Source of the DNA: an uncultured virus (IMG/VR IMGVR_UViG_3300046368_000651)
Taxonomy: Duplodnaviria; Heunggongvirae; Uroviricota; Caudoviricetes
Strand: one strand, 5' to 3'
IMG/VR virus record: IMGVR_UViG_3300046368_000651
Coordinates: 1 to 64,000 of that record
DNA: 64,000 nucleotides
This document shows, in pieces, positions 25,447-64,000 of this stretch (position 1 is its first letter; each line of letters opens with the position of its first letter). Made by a program: the position numbers and the translations under genes. The notes under the pieces are model-generated. The model was not told where the DNA came from. It saw nothing but the letters and a program-made list of their open reading frames with translations, and searched no databases.

Positions 25447-26632
25447 CGTTACCTACCAGTTTTGCTATCTTAGGGTTGACATCTACAAGTGCAGTATTGC
25501 CCTTACTGTCAAGTTTACTTATAACATATCTACGCAGATTGTCAACCTCTTTTCGTGAATTTATTCGCCAATTTTTGTTTTTTATTTCTTCAACATGCTG
25601 TGTGTCTATAAACTTACTAACTTGCTGATCAATTGAGTTGTTGGTTAAAAACTGTTTTATGTAGTCTTTTTGTGCATAGCTTAACAAACTAATATTGTAA
25701 TAGATAGGATCGTGGCAAAAATTAACATTTACGCTTTCATGCGGAATACCTACCTTAGTACACCATTCAAGCATGTCAGTACCGCTTAGACAGTTTAACA
25801 AGCTCACAGTGTATGTTATACGTATGTCAATGTCCTGCTGTAATGCGTGTACAATGTTATCTTCAACACGTTGCCATTTAGCAGGCGGACGTTGGTATTC
25901 GTAGTTAGCGCCTATATCGTCAATACTATAATGCAATTGTATGCGTTTAAACTGTGCAAACTGTTCTAGCAATTTATCTGTTAGTTTAAAGGTACCATTG
26001 GTATGATATTTAATCCAAATATCTTTTGCTTTGTCTTGTGCAATTAAATGCTCTAGTAATTGGTTGTGTTCTTCGATTAAAAATGGTTCACCGCCGCTCA
26101 AATATAGTACTTCTGCATTATTGCTTATGTTTAGAATACTATTCCAATTATCCTGCTGTTGTACCCAATTTTTTCCGTAGCTAGGATTTATAACCTGGCC
26201 AAATAATTCTAATTCAGTAGCTTCCCACTTTTTTGTAAATTCACTATTGCATATCTTACATTTTAAGTTACAATGATTACCTAGTTTAACATCAAAAAGT
26301 ACAGGGTTTGGAGCATCAGTTGAATCCATAAGGTGTAAATGTTTGCCGTGTATTTCAAGTTCACGCTGTCTGCGACTTAGTAAGCCTTGGTCTTCTTGGC
26401 TAAAGCATTTGTTGCATCCTGCTGGCCGTTCGCCGTTGATGTATTGCTGTCTTAGTGCTTTGTATTCTGCATTGTTCCAAACAGTTTCTAGTGTTGTATC
26501 TTTGTTGTTTAAATCTAGTTTGTTGCCCTGTTCGTCTGTAAACTCATACAAGTATTCGGCACAGGGTCTTACATAGCCTGTTGCACATACTTCAATTTGT
26601 GTCCACGGTACAATGCACTTAGGTAATGTCAT
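25436..26632 (-). CDS. Radical SAM protein with SPASM/twitch-like domain
   Basis: CIVPW...GYVRPC...CNKC N-domain; CNLKCKIC; SGGEPF; YHTNGT. Confidence 0.85.
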   Translation of the reverse strand: MTLPKCIVPWTQIEVCATGYVRPCAEYLYEFTDEQGNKLDLNNKDTTLETVWNNAEYKALRQQYINGERPAGCNKCFSQEDQGLLSRRQRELEIHGKHLHLMDSTDAPNPVLFDVKLGNHCNLKCKICNSEFTKKWEATELELFGQVINPSYGKNWVQQQDNWNSILNISNNAEVLYLSGGEPFLIEEHNQLLEHLIAQDKAKDIWIKYHTNGTFKLTDKLLEQFAQFKRIQLHYSIDDIGANYEYQRPPAKWQRVEDNIVHALQQDIDIRITYTVSLLNCLSGTDMLEWCTKVGIPHESVNVNFCHDPIYYNISLLSYAQKDYIKQFLTNNSIDQQVSKFIDTQHVEEIKNKNWRINSRKEVDNLRRYVISKLDSKGNTALVDVNPKIAKLVGNDET

Positions 26633-27353
26633 ACTTGTCCCGTAAGAAAGGCATAATAACTTTTTCAGAAAAGAGTTTGTGCTGATAATTTCCAGGATGA
26701 GGATCTCTTGGATGGGGGAAACGGTCGTTACAATTTTCAACACACCATCCGTGTTCACTACTCACAGGTAAAAAATATTCAAAATCTATCATGTCTTTGA
26801 GATAGTCGTGCTGGTAATTTGCACGATCATCAGGCCTGTCTTTTAATACTTCATCTGTATAAGTGGTCATGAAATATTTAATATTATAATTTTGTAAAAA
26901 CCACTGTGTTCTCAATATGTTTTCATAAGCATATATACTATCGCTTGGATGATTTTGATATCTCTTATACCAATTCTGTGAAAACAAACTATTAAATCCT
27001 ACACCAATTAACACCCACCAACTTTGTTGTTGGGCATGTACTTGAGGCCATAAATGAGGACTGGTATCGCTATCAAACGGTTCGCATATTCCTAATCCTT
27101 CAGGCTTATCAATTAAAAATGCTCTACGTTCTTTGCCACTCCACATTATACCAACCAACATGTCTTCAGGGTTAACCCCTGCTTTTAAACATTCGTTTAC
27201 TTGCCAAATAACTTTTCGACTAATTAAGTCGTTGCCCGAACTACCCACACCGGTTTGGTAATGAGTGTCATATTGTAGTCTATCTTGTAAATGCACAGGC
27301 CAGCACATACTGTCAGCACTGAAGCTGCATCCTCCAGTAATTAATACTTTCAT
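26619..27353 (-). CDS. SGNH-hydrolase-like protein
   Basis: GGCSFS, GSSGN, MWSG..R and DPHPG motifs. Confidence 0.6.
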   Translation of the reverse strand: MKVLITGGCSFSADSMCWPVHLQDRLQYDTHYQTGVGSSGNDLISRKVIWQVNECLKAGVNPEDMLVGIMWSGKERRAFLIDKPEGLGICEPFDSDTSPHLWPQVHAQQQSWWVLIGVGFNSLFSQNWYKRYQNHPSDSIYAYENILRTQWFLQNYNIKYFMTTYTDEVLKDRPDDRANYQHDYLKDMIDFEYFLPVSSEHGWCVENCNDRFPHPRDPHPGNYQHKLFSEKVIMPFLRDKYDIT

Positions 27354-27505
27354 TTGTTATCAATTCTTCCTTTGGTTCCACAATGTGGGCAATGCCAAGT
27401 TGTTCTGTCTGCACAATACTTGTCTTCCATTGTTGCAAACGTAAACCATCCTTTACATTTTATACATGTTAGATGCCAAATAATTTCTTTATGAGCTTTA
27501 AACAT
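27350..27505 (-). CDS. Small zinc-ribbon protein (51 aa, not in track)
   Basis: MFKAHKEIIWHLTCIKCKGWF...WHCPHCGTKGRIDNK; its stop overlaps the next ATG. Confidence 0.65.
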   Translation of the reverse strand: MFKAHKEIIWHLTCIKCKGWFTFATMEDKYCADRTTWHCPHCGTKGRIDNK

Positions 27506-27510
27506 AAACA

Positions 27511-27518
27511 TATTTATA
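27511..27518 (-). promoter_or_regulatory. T4-type late promoter
   Basis: TATAAATA immediately after the tRNA-Pro CCA end. Confidence 0.6.
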
Positions 27519-27519
27519 T

Positions 27520-27597
27520 TGGTCGGGGATGCAAGATTCGAACTTGCGATCTTCTGCTCCCAAAGCAGACGGATTAACCAGACTTTCCTAATCCCCG
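27520..27597 (-). tRNA. tRNA-Pro(UGG)
   Basis: CGGGGAT/ATCCCCG acceptor stem, TCTGC-TTTGGGA-GCAGA anticodon arm, TTCGAAT T-loop, ACCA end. Confidence 0.95.
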
Positions 27598-27599
27598 TT

Positions 27600-27676
27600 T
27601 GGTGCGCCCGGTAGGACTCGAACCTACGATCTACCCGTTATGAGCGGGGAGCTTTAACCAACTAAGCTACAGGCGC
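27600..27676 (-). tRNA. tRNA with CAU anticodon, most likely Ile2 (lysidine-modified, reads AUA)
   Basis: GCGCCTG/CGGGCGC acceptor with C4-G69 and C5-G68 as in bacterial Ile2; loop CTCATAA; no initiator C1:A72 mismatch; ACCA end. Confidence 0.85.
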
Positions 27677-27680
27677 AATT

Positions 27681-27754
27681 TGGCATCGGTGCAGGGAGTC
27701 GAACCCCGGCTTTCAGTTTTGGAGACTGACGTGCTACCGTAACACTTCACCGAC
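27681..27754 (-). tRNA. tRNA-Trp(CCA)
   Basis: GTCGGTG/CACCGAT acceptor stem, TCAGT-CTCCAAA-ACTGA anticodon arm, GCCA end. Confidence 0.95.
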
Positions 27755-27791
27755 AAAAAAAGCCCCTAATAAAATTAATTACTAGGGGCTT
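27755..27791 (-). terminator. Intrinsic terminator (attenuator 3:4 hairpin)
   Basis: GCCCCUAGUAA-UUAAUU-UUAUUAGGGGC followed by U7 that ends at tRNA-Trp nucleotide 1. Confidence 0.85.
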
Positions 27792-27819
27792 GTTGAAATA
27801 ACTTTTTAAAAAGTCACAT

Positions 27820-27882
27820 TCAAGACGTACCCCGGTTATTCGGTGGCCAATATATTATACATATTGATATAGTCTTGAGCAT
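27820..27882 (-). CDS. Putative attenuator leader peptide MLKTISICIIYWPPNNRGTS
   Basis: AAGGA ribosome-binding site; codons ATA x4, TGG, CCA, CCG; the 3' end overlaps the antiterminator strand. Confidence 0.75.
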   Translation of the reverse strand: MLKTISICIIYWPPNNRGTS

Positions 27883-27909
27883 GTTAAAATTCCTTATTTC
27901 TTACGTTCT

Positions 27910-27917
27910 TATTTATA
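27910..27917 (-). promoter_or_regulatory. T4-type late promoter for the leader/tRNA unit
   Basis: Exact TATAAATA 27 nt upstream of the leader ATG. Confidence 0.65.
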
Positions 27918-27923
27918 TAAAAT

Positions 27924-28125
27924 GATAGGTTGGACTCTGTGAATACCAACAACCCCTTTGTAGAGCCACGCTCAAAAACAGGGAGCTTCATATTAAACGG
28001 TTACGTCTAAAAATACAACTTCGTATCTCTACGCTCTTGCATTGCCACTACAGCTATGAACCAAGTTACAACCTCTACGGATTGCCATTCCTTGCACTAT
28101 CTAACTTAGGATATCTCCTAACTTA
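27924..28125 (-). ncRNA. Candidate structured ncRNA (~200 nt)
   Basis: No credible ORF; has its own sigma70 promoter; nested long-range helices and a GAGA tetraloop hairpin. Confidence 0.45.
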
Positions 28126-28132
28126 TGTACTT

Positions 28133-28161
28133 AATATAACAGCCTTTACTACCATTGTCAA
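28133..28161 (-). promoter_or_regulatory. sigma70-type promoter
   Basis: TTGACA-N17-TATATT. Confidence 0.65.
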
Positions 28162-28176
28162 CCACTTTTTTGCATT

Positions 28177-28380
28177 TTATTTAAAATTCTTTTCAGTTCC
28201 GTCAGTTATTTTCTTTGCTAATCTGTATGGGAGGAACCCAAACATAAAAGGAAAAAATGCATGAATAATTCCTGTGATAAAAACTAATAGTGCTATACAT
28301 GCAAAATATACGGCATAGAAAAGATGCTCAAAATATGTTGTGCTTGCTTTCTGTAAATGCTTAAAATCAAATATTTTCAT
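28177..28380 (-). CDS. Small membrane protein (DUF6356-like)
   Basis: HL......Y.EHL..A...IHAFFPF pattern; AAGGA ribosome-binding site. Confidence 0.6.
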   Translation of the reverse strand: MKIFDFKHLQKASTTYFEHLFYAVYFACIALLVFITGIIHAFFPFMFGFLPYRLAKKITDGTEKNFK

Positions 28381-28395
28381 ATGATTCCTTTGTTA

Positions 28396-28470
28396 TGGTA
28401 GTCCCTACGGGAGTCGAACCCGTCTTTCAAGGTTGAAAACCTGGCGTCCTAACCGATAGACGAAGGGACC
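28396..28470 (-). tRNA. tRNA-Glu(UUC)
   Basis: Cloverleaf with loop TTTTCAA and ACCA end. Confidence 0.92.
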
Positions 28471-28475
28471 AAGTT

Positions 28476-28550
28476 TGGCTGGAACGGTAGGACTCGAACC
28501 TACAATCACTTGTACCAAAAACAAGGGCATTACCATTATGCTACGTTCCA
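28476..28550 (-). tRNA. tRNA-Gln(UUG)
   Basis: U1-A72 pair, CTTGT-TTTTGGT-ACAAG anticodon arm, GCCA end. Confidence 0.92.
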
Positions 28551-28561
28551 TTGCCATTAAA

Positions 28562-28645
28562 TGGTGCGGATGGAGAGACTCGAACTCTCACGCCGTGAAG
28601 CACAGGTACCTAAAACCTGCGTGTCTACCATTCCACCACATCCGC
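28562..28645 (-). tRNA. tRNA-Leu(UAG)
   Basis: Long variable arm, CAGGT-TTTAGGT-ACCTG anticodon arm, ACCA end. Confidence 0.95.
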
Positions 28646-28647
28646 TA

Positions 28648-28723
28648 TGGTGCCTGTTGAGAGACTTGAACTCCCGACATGATGCTTACAAAGCACCTGC
28701 TCTACCAGCTGAGCTAAACAGGC
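28648..28723 (-). tRNA. tRNA-Thr(UGU)
   Basis: GCCTGTT/AACAGGC acceptor stem, loop TTTGTAA, ACCA end. Confidence 0.95.
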
Positions 28724-28724
28724 T

Positions 28725-29093
28725 TTATTTATTTCGACCTTTAAATGTGTCTGTCTGTGAATGACAGTTAGGACACAACAGTCGGAGATTACTTGGCACA
28801 TTGTTCTTATTGTTGCCATCTATATGATCGCACTCTAATACAATGTCTTTGCCGTTATGCTTGCTAATACCACAGCACTCGCAAGTGTAACCTCTTTCAC
28901 GGGCTAAGTACCCGCTTTTGTCTTTAATCCAACCTGGAATGTTATTACCCCAAGTATAGTCTTCGTTAAGCCATCTGGTAATTCTGGCTTCTCTTGTGGC
29001 AGCACCTTGGCAAGCATTGTTACAATACTTGTTAGTGTTTTGCCTAACCCATACATTCTCTTTGCCGCAGTGTAAACAGTTATAAGTTTTCAT
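28725..29093 (-). CDS. HNH homing endonuclease
   Basis: CECC...LECDHIDGNNKNNVPSNLRLLCPNCHSQT; N-terminal CxxC...YCNNAC. Confidence 0.9.
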   Translation of the reverse strand: MKTYNCLHCGKENVWVRQNTNKYCNNACQGAATREARITRWLNEDYTWGNNIPGWIKDKSGYLARERGYTCECCGISKHNGKDIVLECDHIDGNNKNNVPSNLRLLCPNCHSQTDTFKGRNK

Positions 29094-29139
29094 TGGTGTA
29101 ATACCTCCAATGTATTTATCACTGCTCTACCTTTTCTGC

Positions 29140-29164
29140 ACCAGCTGAGCTAAACAGGCTTTAT
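29140..29164. repeat. 25-bp direct repeat of 28704-28728 (tRNA-Thr 5' end) flanking the HNH gene
   Basis: accagctgagctaaacaggctttat is identical at both positions. Confidence 0.9.
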
Positions 29165-29235
29165 CTTTTTACTCTACAAATTGGACAAAAATCATTATGA
29201 TCCAATTCAAATTTACATTCAGGACATTTATTCAT
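29161..29235 (-). CDS. 24-aa CxxC-CxxC microprotein
   Basis: MNKCPECKFELDHNDFCPICRVKR; AGGA upstream. Confidence 0.55.
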   Translation of the reverse strand: MNKCPECKFELDHNDFCPICRVKR

Positions 29236-29256
29236 AAAAATACTTATCCTGTATCT

Positions 29257-29347
29257 TGGCGGGCAGCCAGGGATTCGAACCCTGGGAACGCTATTAACGT
29301 TCGTCCGCTTAGTAGGCGGGTGCTTTAAACCACTCAGCCAACTGCCC
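29257..29347 (-). tRNA. tRNA-Ser(ACU)
   Basis: Long variable arm, G73 discriminator, anticodon loop CT-ACT-AA. Confidence 0.88.
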
Positions 29348-29352
29348 GTATT

Positions 29353-29571
29353 CTATTCAGTAGGAAACTCTACTACCGTATCGTCATCATTACTAACTAT
29401 TGTTAGCATGGGTCTACTGTTGTTGTTATTTGCTGCTTCGTCTTCTTCTAACAGCTCTTCTAGTATGTCTGCAACTTGTTCATCTTCGAAGTGCAAATAC
29501 TTTTCAATAATATCTAAACGGCTATCAATCTTATACAGCAATTCTAATATTTCATCAGCTTTAAAACTCAT
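29353..29571 (-). CDS. Acidic hypothetical protein
   Basis: 72 aa ORF. Confidence 0.55.
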   Translation of the reverse strand: MSFKADEILELLYKIDSRLDIIEKYLHFEDEQVADILEELLEEDEAANNNNSRPMLTIVSNDDDTVVEFPTE

Positions 29572-30062
29572 TTTGCTGAAATACTTACATTTACAGGAAT
29601 ACGATCGCCTACATTATACGAATTATATGTATAGCTTTTGCCAACTACACCATTCCATTCATAACGAATGCGATAGTTTTTAATTTGACGTTCAGTAGTA
29701 TAACGATTTTCTTGGTAACATTGCTTTTCACGTTTGTAGCCAACAATGCCACGTTTTCCTTGATTATTATCAGCAGCAATAATACCGCCTAGCACTGCAC
29801 CTGCGGCAGCACCATTGTCTTTACCAGTAACACCTTTACCTAACAGTCCACCAATAATCATACCACCTAGCACATCAGCGCCGCTTGCGCCTCCGCCGGT
29901 GTTGCCATAGATAGGAACTTCAACATCGTTACAAATTGTAACAGGTTGATTGGTTGTTACTTCTTGATAGTTAGCTGTGACGTTAGTAATAGTAGCATAA
30001 TTTTCAGCAGACGCTTGTGTAGCAAATGTTGCAATTGCGGCTGTAGCAAGTAAGTATTTCAT
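29568..30062 (-). CDS. Exported glycine-zipper 2TM protein
   Basis: Signal peptide; GGMIIGGLLG...GAAAGAVLGGII. Confidence 0.75.
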   Translation of the reverse strand: MKYLLATAAIATFATQASAENYATITNVTANYQEVTTNQPVTICNDVEVPIYGNTGGGASGADVLGGMIIGGLLGKGVTGKDNGAAAGAVLGGIIAADNNQGKRGIVGYKREKQCYQENRYTTERQIKNYRIRYEWNGVVGKSYTYNSYNVGDRIPVNVSISAK

Positions 30063-30089
30063 AATAACCTCTGTTTTGTTTATACAAAC

Positions 30090-30118
30090 AACATAGCACA
30101 TTTATGTGCTGTTGTCAA
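30090..30118 (-). promoter_or_regulatory. sigma70-type promoter
   Basis: TTGACA-N17-TATGTT; palindrome GCACATAAATGTGC in the spacer. Confidence 0.55.
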
Positions 30119-30119
30119 C

Positions 30120-30647
30120 CTAAAAATGCATTTCGTCTTGTTTTATTTTTGGAGTACCAGTAAGCTGTATAGCATATCTATTCTGCATACTAAAATTATA
30201 TACAGCATGTGGATCTCCGTTGTCCCAACTGATCCAATCTCCTGCTTTCCATTCTCCAAGTGTAACATCACATGCTTGCGATACTTGTCCAGGTACACTA
30301 TCTTCTAGCATAATAACATGTCTAGTAATAGTTTGGTCTGTTAATCCGTGAAAGGTTTTATACTTGCCATACAGGTCTCCGTGTACAGGCAAGTATTGCC
30401 CAGGCGTGAACAAGTTTATTGCTACACTTACATTTTCTAAATCAAACTGCGGTACAATATAATCAAACACAACATTAGGAAAAGGATTGGGTTGAAAGTA
30501 ATTCCACAGTGTCATATACATTTTACTGTGTCCGGTACTAGCAAATTTGTTTAGTAACGCATCGTCTTTATGCGTATCAAATTTGTAGTCTAATGCCTTA
30601 AACTCTTCGATGTCCCACGAAGGATTTATGTGTCCGCTGTTAAACAT
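30120..30647 (-). CDS. 2OG-Fe(II)/cupin-type oxygenase-like protein
   Basis: PGQYLPVHGD (HxD) and H...N.....R...QLTG motifs. Confidence 0.65.
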   Translation of the reverse strand: MFNSGHINPSWDIEEFKALDYKFDTHKDDALLNKFASTGHSKMYMTLWNYFQPNPFPNVVFDYIVPQFDLENVSVAINLFTPGQYLPVHGDLYGKYKTFHGLTDQTITRHVIMLEDSVPGQVSQACDVTLGEWKAGDWISWDNGDPHAVYNFSMQNRYAIQLTGTPKIKQDEMHF

Positions 30648-63740: not shown

Positions 63741-63761
63741 TAAACGTCCTTTATATTAGAG

Positions 63762-63924
63762 TGGCACTTCTGTTGCTAGGCAGTACCCGCCCCCACATAC
63801 CCTTAGGCTGCTAATGCCATTTCTGGCGCATAATTGTTATTTGCAATTATAAAGTTTGACCAATAACGCAGTCATCCGGTTAACTCCACTTCACTTTCAC
63901 ACCTGTCGATCCTAGTTCTGCCCC
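63762..63924 (-). ncRNA. ssrA: tmRNA, tag-coding part of a two-piece (permuted) gene
   Basis: 5' GGGGCAGAACUAGGAUCGAC; tag ORF 63844-63803 encodes ANNNYAPEMALAA*; alpha-type 3' GCAACAGAAG element; no T-arm/CCA follows. Confidence 0.88.
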
Positions 63925-64000
63925 ATCATAAACATACGACTTGCGGCTTTCGGCCCTTGTCCTATGCACAGGAAAGTAGGTGCATCTACTCTCATATGTT

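Follow-up and report, generated by a model that had tools for sequence, protein, structure and literature searches.

The stretch of DNA analysed here (the window) comprises positions 1–64,000 of IMG/VR record IMGVR_UViG_3300046368_000651, an uncultured virus of the Caudoviricetes, and carries on its minus strand a short leader that ends in an intrinsic terminator immediately ahead of three tRNA genes; coordinates are those of the window and, unless a contig of another virus is named, all features lie on the minus strand. The leader has a Shine-Dalgarno (SD) motif, AAGGA (27891–27895), 8 nt ahead of the ATG of an open reading frame (ORF) of 20 codons plus TGA (MLKTISICIIYWPPNNRGTS, 27820–27882), in which all four Ile codons are ATA, codon 12 is the single TGG (27847–27849) and CCA CCG comes directly after it; seven of codons 5–14 are ATA, TGG or CCN. 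Behind the stop codon stand hairpin D (UGACUUUU / AAAAGUUA, 27798–27817) and the terminator (27755–27791), a 13-pair stem (27791–27760) with a run of seven U (27761–27755), and the base next to this run is the first of tRNA-Trp (CCA; 27681–27754), which both ARAGORN and Rfam match as a tRNA. A tRNA with a CAU anticodon follows (27600–27676), labelled Met by ARAGORN from the anticodon alone and probably an AUA-reading tRNA-Ile2, and tRNA-Pro (UGG; 27520–27597), found in the tRNA search, is the last gene of the cluster. The motif TATAAATA occurs ahead of the leader (27910–27917), where the sequence is plain to see and a function is not supported, and again just after tRNA-Pro (27511–27518). A first-pass annotation of this DNA had read the unit as a translated-leader attenuator whose control codons match the three tRNAs it gates. 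The ORF, AAGGA, TATAAATA, the U7 run and the three tRNAs all lie where it had placed them; of its 11-bp terminator with U7 abutting tRNA-Trp, the U run and the abutment stand, whilst the stem length gives way to the 13 pairs found by our scan.

The 156-nt leader folds at −46 kcal/mol, compared with −26.5 ± 3.6 kcal/mol for shuffled sequences (z −5.47; none of 200 shuffles was as good), and several of its strands have alternative partners. Helix A joins UCAAGAC in codons 2–4 (27872–27878) to GUCUUGA (27820–27826), which contains the UGA stop (27822–27820); an AU-rich hairpin B (27848–27866) contains all but one of the four AUA codons and extends two bases into UGG; and segment 1, GCCACCG (27841–27847), made up of the last G of UGG and the two Pro codons, pairs with segment 2, CGGGGU (27829–27834). 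Segment 2 can alternatively pair with the terminator 5′ arm, GCCCC (segment 3, 27789–27785), and GUCUUGA with UUCAA (27797–27793), the two partners together forming the antiterminator 3′ strand (27785–27797); hairpin D is present in both states. Constrained folding recovered the antiterminator that had been predicted from the letters, GGGGU (27833–27829) with GCCCC (27789–27785), along with its inner helices. In a single window such an arrangement could be chance; its conservation across homologs indicates that it is not.

Homologs were sought by a scan for the tRNA-Trp anticodon arm followed by blastn, and later by scans for leader patterns. The first blastn round found the leader conserved at 74–94% identity in about a dozen viral contigs; a 15-base leader-motif scan, independent of the tRNA, gave about 40% chance matches in coding DNA among the matches listed, and two exact 20-base core patterns gave complete lists of 57 + 26 = 83 viral contigs. 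Once copies with <95 nt upstream had been dropped, identical leaders collapsed and a false match (L235) removed, 58 distinct complete leaders remained, all in uncultured marine viral contigs. The first-pass annotation had proposed a survey of related contigs, and the ORF, the terminator and tRNA-Trp proved to be kept in 58/58. The core pattern is absent from 185,579 prokaryote genomes (one per species), and in 50,697 cultured-phage records the window region and a consensus-type leader found matches to their tRNA parts only and none to the leader part. The Rfam Trp-leader and T-box families gave no match at E up to 1 in 27700–28250 or in 26000–30500; weak Rfam matches near the leader (L10 leader, 25.1 bits; PyrR; trpB motif, E 0.94) all fall far below the gathering scores.

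The UGG codon is invariant in all 58 leaders, and the first tRNA downstream is tRNA-Trp (CCA), called by ARAGORN in 57; behind the 58th leader (L268) the 76 nt after the terminator, uncalled by ARAGORN, were read by eye as a tRNA whose anticodon position holds CCA. The Trp link proposed for the window thus holds throughout the family. By sequence, the tRNA-Trp genes that follow the leader fall into several clearly distinct types; leader and tRNA-Trp have therefore stayed together while the tRNA itself changed. In 28 of the 58 the U run is followed at +1 by the tRNA, so that no promoter could fit between them. In two leaderless relatives (L106 and L020), with tRNA-Trp 98–100% identical, a TTGACA/TATAGT-type promoter stands directly before the tRNA, and in leader-bearing homologs the same promoter type sits before the leader; the leader-terminator module therefore lies between promoter and tRNA, the place of a regulator. 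We considered as main driver of the tRNAs an internal promoter in the consensus leader (TTGACG-16 nt-TATTTT, for example in L137 and L146), which reaches from the stop codon to hairpin D, and ruled it out: in the 17 leaders with a GTG start its −35-like hexamer is reduced to the weaker TTAACR, this G/A change tracks helix A and keeps a stop codon, and a transcript starting there would still meet the terminator.

The tRNA-Trp genes also differ in size, at 85–88 nt with an enlarged D or variable region in L328 (1145–1232) and others (for example L124, L137 and L150) and at 71–74 nt in the remainder. Some contigs carry an insert between the U run and tRNA-Trp, of 90–95 nt in L253, L254, L255, L264, L279, L285, L295 and L298 and of 76–79 nt in L270, L304, L316 and L322; it is conserved and cloverleaf-like, with a closing stem of 10–12 bp and two or three inner hairpins, and drew no call from ARAGORN or Rfam. 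In L265 the 70-nt spacer is instead a 15-codon mini-ORF preceded by an SD motif and containing two Trp codons (MTDSEYWRWMKSQVE); it may be a second Trp-codon leader or chance.

The leader ORF bears several marks of translation. An SD-like motif is present in 58/58 leaders, the start codon is ATG in 41 and GTG in 17 at the same structural position, and the frame is open in every leader for 15–22 codons, whilst frames +1 and +2 contain stops in 37/58 and 45/58. The spacing from start to UGG is 27, 30, 33 or 36 nt in all 58, and that from UGG to an invariant A(U/C)GUCUU anchor is 18, 21, 24 or 27 nt in 56; in the exceptions (L195 and L223) this distance is 19 nt and GGGG is directly preceded by an in-frame TAG. 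On a tree built from the leader flanks, with the variable codons excluded (57 of the 58 rows), the two spacers have changed length at least 9 and at least 17 times, and changes in steps of three argue for translation. The stop codon lies inside a helix, and where its partner base changes TGA becomes TAA, still a stop. From these comparisons we infer that the ORF is translated. A structured non-coding RNA with its own terminator, in which the ORF is incidental and the tRNAs derive from leaky read-through or from transcripts starting elsewhere, seems to us quite unlikely: it would suit the strong fold (z −5.47), a helix covariation that includes the start codon, a peptide unconserved apart from the helix parts and the abundance of the neighbouring manA-like RNA (described below), but leaves without a reason the SD motif and start kept in 58/58, the indels in threes (56/58 and 58/58), the closure of the other frames, the stop that stays a stop when its helix partner changes, and the covariation of codons with tRNAs set out below.

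The leader peptide shows no conservation except where its residues coincide with RNA helices, which fits a leader in which the codons matter and the product does not. The same pattern makes it most improbable that the ORF is a functional micropeptide gene of 15–22 residues that merely lies upstream of the tRNAs with its own terminator; such a gene would also conserve an ORF with SD and start codon, but here the middle is freely replaced (ICIIY, TNITC, QQSSLQN), the length varies, the conserved residues are those of the helices, and both the constant tRNA-Trp and the match between codons and tRNA content would go unexplained. TnaC-like sensing, in which the nascent peptide would respond to free Trp, was likewise considered and rejected, as the spacing from W to the stop varies (3, 7, 8, 9 or 10 codons).

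The translated leader of the attenuator reading would act through two RNA states, both of which can be followed across the family. In the off state, helix A joins codons 2–4, and in most homologs also the start codon, to GUCUU(G/A)A and the bases after it, segment 2 (GGGGU) is paired with segment 1 (CC-N-CC preceded by the final G of UGG), and hairpin D and the terminator complete the fold. In a 52-sequence alignment (A1) the 29 pairs of this state form in 91.8% of cells, compared with 32–50% with slid partners; at the first base of the start codon A pairs with U in 36 sequences and G with C in 16, a covariation that no sequence breaks, and the terminator helix pairs in 97.7% of cells, with four pairs changed on both sides. 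The on state (GGGGU/GCCCC plus UGUCU/AGAUA, or variants of these) pairs in 90.9% of cells compared with 40–67% when slid, and in one divergent lineage (L115), the only one of its kind, changes in segment 3 are matched both in segment 2 and in segment 4, its partner in the terminator. RNAalifold on a MAFFT alignment returned the terminator and a 3-pair stem only, a poor recovery attributable to misalignment of the variable codon region, and the structures were then named by hand and the sequences folded singly.

The effect of a ribosome was modelled in masked folds of 57 leaders (one, containing an N, was left out) with the RNA cut before the terminator 3′ arm. With the A site at UGG the antiterminator forms in 55/57 leaders (mean −18.5 kcal/mol), with the A site two codons before UGG in 56/57 (mean −20.8 kcal/mol) and one codon after UGG in 31/57 (mean −15.8 kcal/mol), whilst with the ribosome at the stop it forms in 0/57, segment 3 is free in 44 and the mean is −5.8 kcal/mol. 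The contrast between UGG (55/57) and the stop (0/57) is the one that the first-pass annotation had expected of a fold with the ribosome-covered segment masked. In these same folds the antiterminator arises wherever upstream of the stop the ribosome sits, and in 50/57 leaders with no ribosome at all, and is prevented only by a ribosome at the stop; this would also suit a general sensor of translation speed or ribosome availability, in which the outcome is set by whatever slows the first ribosome (host shut-off, a shortage of free ribosomes, a slow Pro-Pro bond) rather than by particular tRNAs. W-P-P is generally held to be a slow motif, and most leaders have one codon for most of the gated tRNAs, both of which such a sensor would accommodate.

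What speaks for tRNA-specific control by the leader is the relationship between its codons and the tRNAs behind it. Two or more ATA codons are present in 13 leaders, always in the few codons ahead of UGG, and a CAU and/or UAU tRNA lies downstream of 12 of these 13, compared with 0 of the 45 leaders with no or one ATA. Near-identical leaders can differ in this way: VIKTNTICIICWPPKGGMS is followed by Cys, CAU and UAU tRNAs, VIKTNTTNITCWPPKGGMS by those for Pro, Cys and Arg. On the best tree, unsupported branches included, 9/9 path-disjoint pairs for Ile go in the expected direction (sign test p 0.002), and the AUA link drawn from the window alone is borne out by this co-variation of codon and anticodon. 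For Ser(UGA) seven pairs go in the expected direction and one against, for Cys six and one (8 ties), for Gln three and one, and for Tyr two and none, tRNA-Tyr lying behind all three leaders with two Tyr codons and behind no others; the Pro pairs (7 vs 3, 8 ties) are not significant. Codons W-4 to W-1 match their own cluster at 69 of 232 positions compared with 34.3 ± 4.0 for permuted clusters. Five large records were also checked for AUA tRNAs elsewhere: two have AUA-rich leaders, two are without such a tRNA, and the fifth (G001), whose leader is AUA-free, has an unrelated CAU tRNA 66 kb away. An invariant UGG with a constant tRNA-Trp, and AUA codons that covary with CAU and UAU tRNAs in 9/9 pairs, would be unexpected if codon identity were irrelevant, and a sensor of general translation speed is in our judgement unlikely.

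The Pro codons follow a different rule from the AUA codons of the attenuator. They are near-universal with or without a downstream tRNA-Pro and coincide with segment 1, and in short-spacer variants the masked folds have a ribosome held at them already covering GGGG. Because they form segment 1, and because of this covering, they are probably structural and not control codons, and the Pro link of the first-pass annotation is given up.

Seven distinct CAU tRNAs, six behind AUA-rich leaders and one upstream of the leader of L068, all share C4-G69 and a G-C pair at 29-41, which we take to be among the identity elements of E. coli tRNA-Ile and TilS and to be unlike elongator tRNA-Met. A stronger argument than these elements is the covariation with AUA codons, which runs in parallel with that of the UAU tRNAs and argues that the CAU tRNAs read AUA. 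The CAU tRNA of the window had no match in E. coli genomes, and an identity could not be transferred from an annotated gene there. The UAU tRNAs are 92–94 nt long (L058 613–706, minus strand; L243 1524–1617, plus; L256 773–863, minus; L316 448–538, minus; L285 1511–1601, plus) and have a long variable arm, a type-II shape unexpected for an Ile anticodon, and a loop that keeps CCAGAUUAG.

We put at roughly 0.7 the probability that the element is a ribosome-mediated (leader-peptide) transcription attenuator gating the phage tRNA cluster, a judgement drawn from sequence comparison. In this model transcription enters the short leader, which would be translated while it is being made. A ribosome running on time would reach the stop inside GUCUUGA and cover the GGGG strand (segment 2), CCCC (segment 3) would pair with segment 4, and the terminator would halt RNA polymerase one base before tRNA-Trp. 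A delayed ribosome would be held at or just before the invariant UGG, and in the window it could be slowed at the four AUA codons as well; segment 2 and GUCUUGA would then be free to pair with GCCCC and UUCAA, the terminator would be blocked, and the polymerase would read through into tRNA-Trp, the CAU tRNA (probably tRNA-Ile2) and tRNA-Pro. The tRNAs so made would relieve the delay, a direct negative feedback on tRNA supply. We infer that stalling at the control codons causes the read-through and that the switch benefits the phage, which probably makes the gated tRNAs only when ribosomes run short of them; that the circuit counters host anticodon nucleases, as had also been proposed, is pure speculation. 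For the fuller reading we would offer slightly better than even odds: in marine jumbo phages this would be a re-writable attenuator providing direct feedback on viral tRNA supply, its codons at or before UGG spelled by each lineage to match the scarce tRNAs that it gates (Trp always; AUA-Ile, Cys, Tyr or Ser in some) and on only while host decoding is too slow. Of the original proposal, a translated-leader attenuator gating tRNAs, the Trp and AUA matching has been strengthened by the 58 homologs and their covariation, whilst the Pro link and the late promoter have not survived.

A number of observations weigh against this attenuator. Translation and read-through are both suggested by comparison and not by bench work, and a start codon sequestered in helix A is also compatible with a non-coding RNA. 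Covariation of the antiterminator is weak, GGGG and CCCC being almost invariant, with double changes in 3 cells only, which 44/500 shuffles equalled. Without a ribosome the antiterminator is the equilibrium fold of the cut transcript in 50/57 leaders, so that termination without translation must be kinetic or the default be read-through; kinetic trapping by the off-state domain, which is made first, or default read-through would then presumably describe the ribosome-free state. The window is an exception here, its off-state domain winning at −24.0 kcal/mol without a ribosome. Only one Trp codon is conserved, whilst classical leaders have runs of control codons, and in the 58 leaders and the tree pairs the Gly, Lys and Arg codons, like those for Pro, show no link to their own tRNAs. 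Behind the AUA-rich leader of L068, the 598 nt that remain to the contig end contain neither a CAU nor a UAU tRNA; this contig ends 271 nt after the fourth tRNA, and a CAU tRNA lies 406 nt upstream of the leader. The nine Ile pairs rely in part on branches without support, and a strict pairs test confined to well-supported branches leaves two Ile pairs, both agreeing, and is underpowered. The permutation test of codons near UGG ignores relatedness, and the early codons (W-10 to W-5) also show an excess of about twofold. Lastly, in 13 of the 58 contigs 70–95 nt separate the terminator from tRNA-Trp.

Upstream of the leader lies a full-length manA-like structured RNA (Rfam RF01745; 27919–28121), which ends 1 nt ahead of TATAAATA and matches at 45.7 bits (E 1e-10; gathering score 55.2). 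Such an RNA adjoins the leader upstream in three lineages, the window, L255 (717–927, plus strand; 58.0 bits, above the gathering score) and L264 (1096–1301, minus strand; 37.0 bits). A sigma-70-like promoter with 11 of 12 matches, TTGACA-17 nt-TG-TATATT (28133–28161), stands upstream of the manA-like RNA of the window and is likely the start of a transcript that runs into the leader; the manA-like RNA shares a transcription unit with the leader or lies directly upstream of it. We compared contigs from four RNA libraries, which give no transcript ends. In the X15 contigs k-mer depth is 400–1460 over 27912–28115 compared with 17–30 on both flanks, in one run 20–80 times that of the flanks, and in the X16 contigs it is 32–55 over the same interval compared with about 12 upstream and 0–34 downstream; a region so much deeper than its flanks points to an abundant RNA species. 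The manA-like RNA behaves like an abundant stable RNA, and the label of cis-regulator of protein genes is ill-suited to it here. In excerpts of two papers manA, found in cyanophages and marine bacteria, figures as a candidate cis-regulator or riboswitch, and those excerpts do not mention tRNA leaders (PMC2864571, PMC9964418). One 274-base RNA-library contig spans the terminator and tRNA-Trp, though a contig cannot prove a transcript, library DNA being possible.

The source record is a 75.8-kb fragment with a CheckV completeness of 24%. Two related records, one of 275 kb (rated 77% complete) and one of 237 kb (67%), suggest a genome of roughly 350 kb, and the leader-bearing phages appear to be jumbo phages of this size. 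The first-pass annotation had taken TATAAATA for a T4-type late promoter. The 64-kb window contains 4 copies of the motif where 7.7 are expected, homologs have sigma-70-like promoters where the window has TATAAATA, a search for Gp23 (PF07068) gave no match in five related records (one of 275 kb), nor in control genomes, and no T4 core genes were among the PHROG matches; from the motif count, the Gp23 search result and the PHROG matches, the T4 late-promoter framing was not accepted. Downstream of the cluster, a 244-aa ORF (26619–27353) used as bait recovered eight loci, 34–46% identical, all of them without leader or manA. Further upstream, an ORF for an HNH endonuclease (28725–29093; PHROG E 3e-22) separates two tRNA subclusters and directly adjoins tRNA-Thr at its end, and ARAGORN calls a tRNA-Ser with anticodon ACU at 29257–29347, an anticodon starting in A being rare in bacteria and phages. 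A permuted tmRNA gene of the alpha-proteobacterial type (63758–64000; RF01849 63.8 bits, RF04321 59.8 bits) is cut by the window end, and such a phage-borne tmRNA is a possible clue to the host.

The proposed attenuator resembles the E. coli trpL, his, leu, thr, ilv and pheA leaders in its short, probably translated leader with control codons, its intrinsic terminator, its predicted mutually exclusive 1:2, 2:3 and 3:4 pairings and a stop placed so that a finishing ribosome would mask the antiterminator strand. Unlike these it would gate tRNA genes and not biosynthetic enzymes, so that the product sensed is the product made, and it belongs to a phage and has one Trp codon with mixed, lineage-specific others, without sequence or Rfam similarity to them. 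The pheM leader of E. coli pheST attenuates an aminoacyl-tRNA synthetase operon and, like the phage element, would tune the translation apparatus to the level of charged tRNA through leader-peptide attenuation, but it controls a charging enzyme and has a single amino-acid specificity. T-boxes have in common with the element a choice between terminator and antiterminator made by tRNA status and a codon-anticodon logic; they bind uncharged tRNA directly, however, and need no ribosome, and the conserved ORF with its three-base indels points to sensing by a ribosome rather than of the T-box type. Attenuation of amino-acid operons is treated in the excerpts of two papers (PMC3890552, PMC3082878), and two others use the his leader to gauge in vivo how fast particular codons are read, and with it tRNA availability (PMC4046918, PMC11805395), a laboratory use of a biosynthetic-operon leader and not a natural control of tRNA genes. 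Full-text literature searches, whose coverage leaves out subscription journals, returned no description of a leader-peptide attenuator before tRNA genes. An attenuator ahead of E. coli pheV or pheU was considered and set aside on the pheV sequence: the region upstream of pheV shows a promoter only, and the gap ahead of pheU is about 105 nt by annotation.

Promoter strength and growth-rate signals are the controls usually assumed for tRNA genes. Leader-peptide attenuation is a known mechanism, and what is new here is tRNA genes as its target and the lineage-specific rewriting of its control codons. For phages, both the reason for carrying tRNAs and the timing of tRNA expression still call for an explanation. 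Placed before tRNA genes, an attenuator would be the shortest feedback loop, in which the ribosome tests a codon and the tRNA for that codon is made if it is slow, and on-demand tRNA supply during infection is a directly testable model. The 58 leaders form a natural series of variants in which control codons and gated tRNAs change together, the AUA covariation assigning AUA decoding to the CAU tRNAs and to the odd long-armed UAU tRNA, and the element would offer a compact and programmable way to sense how fast individual codons are decoded. If the reading is true, leader-peptide attenuation of tRNA genes would be an undescribed layer of phage gene control.

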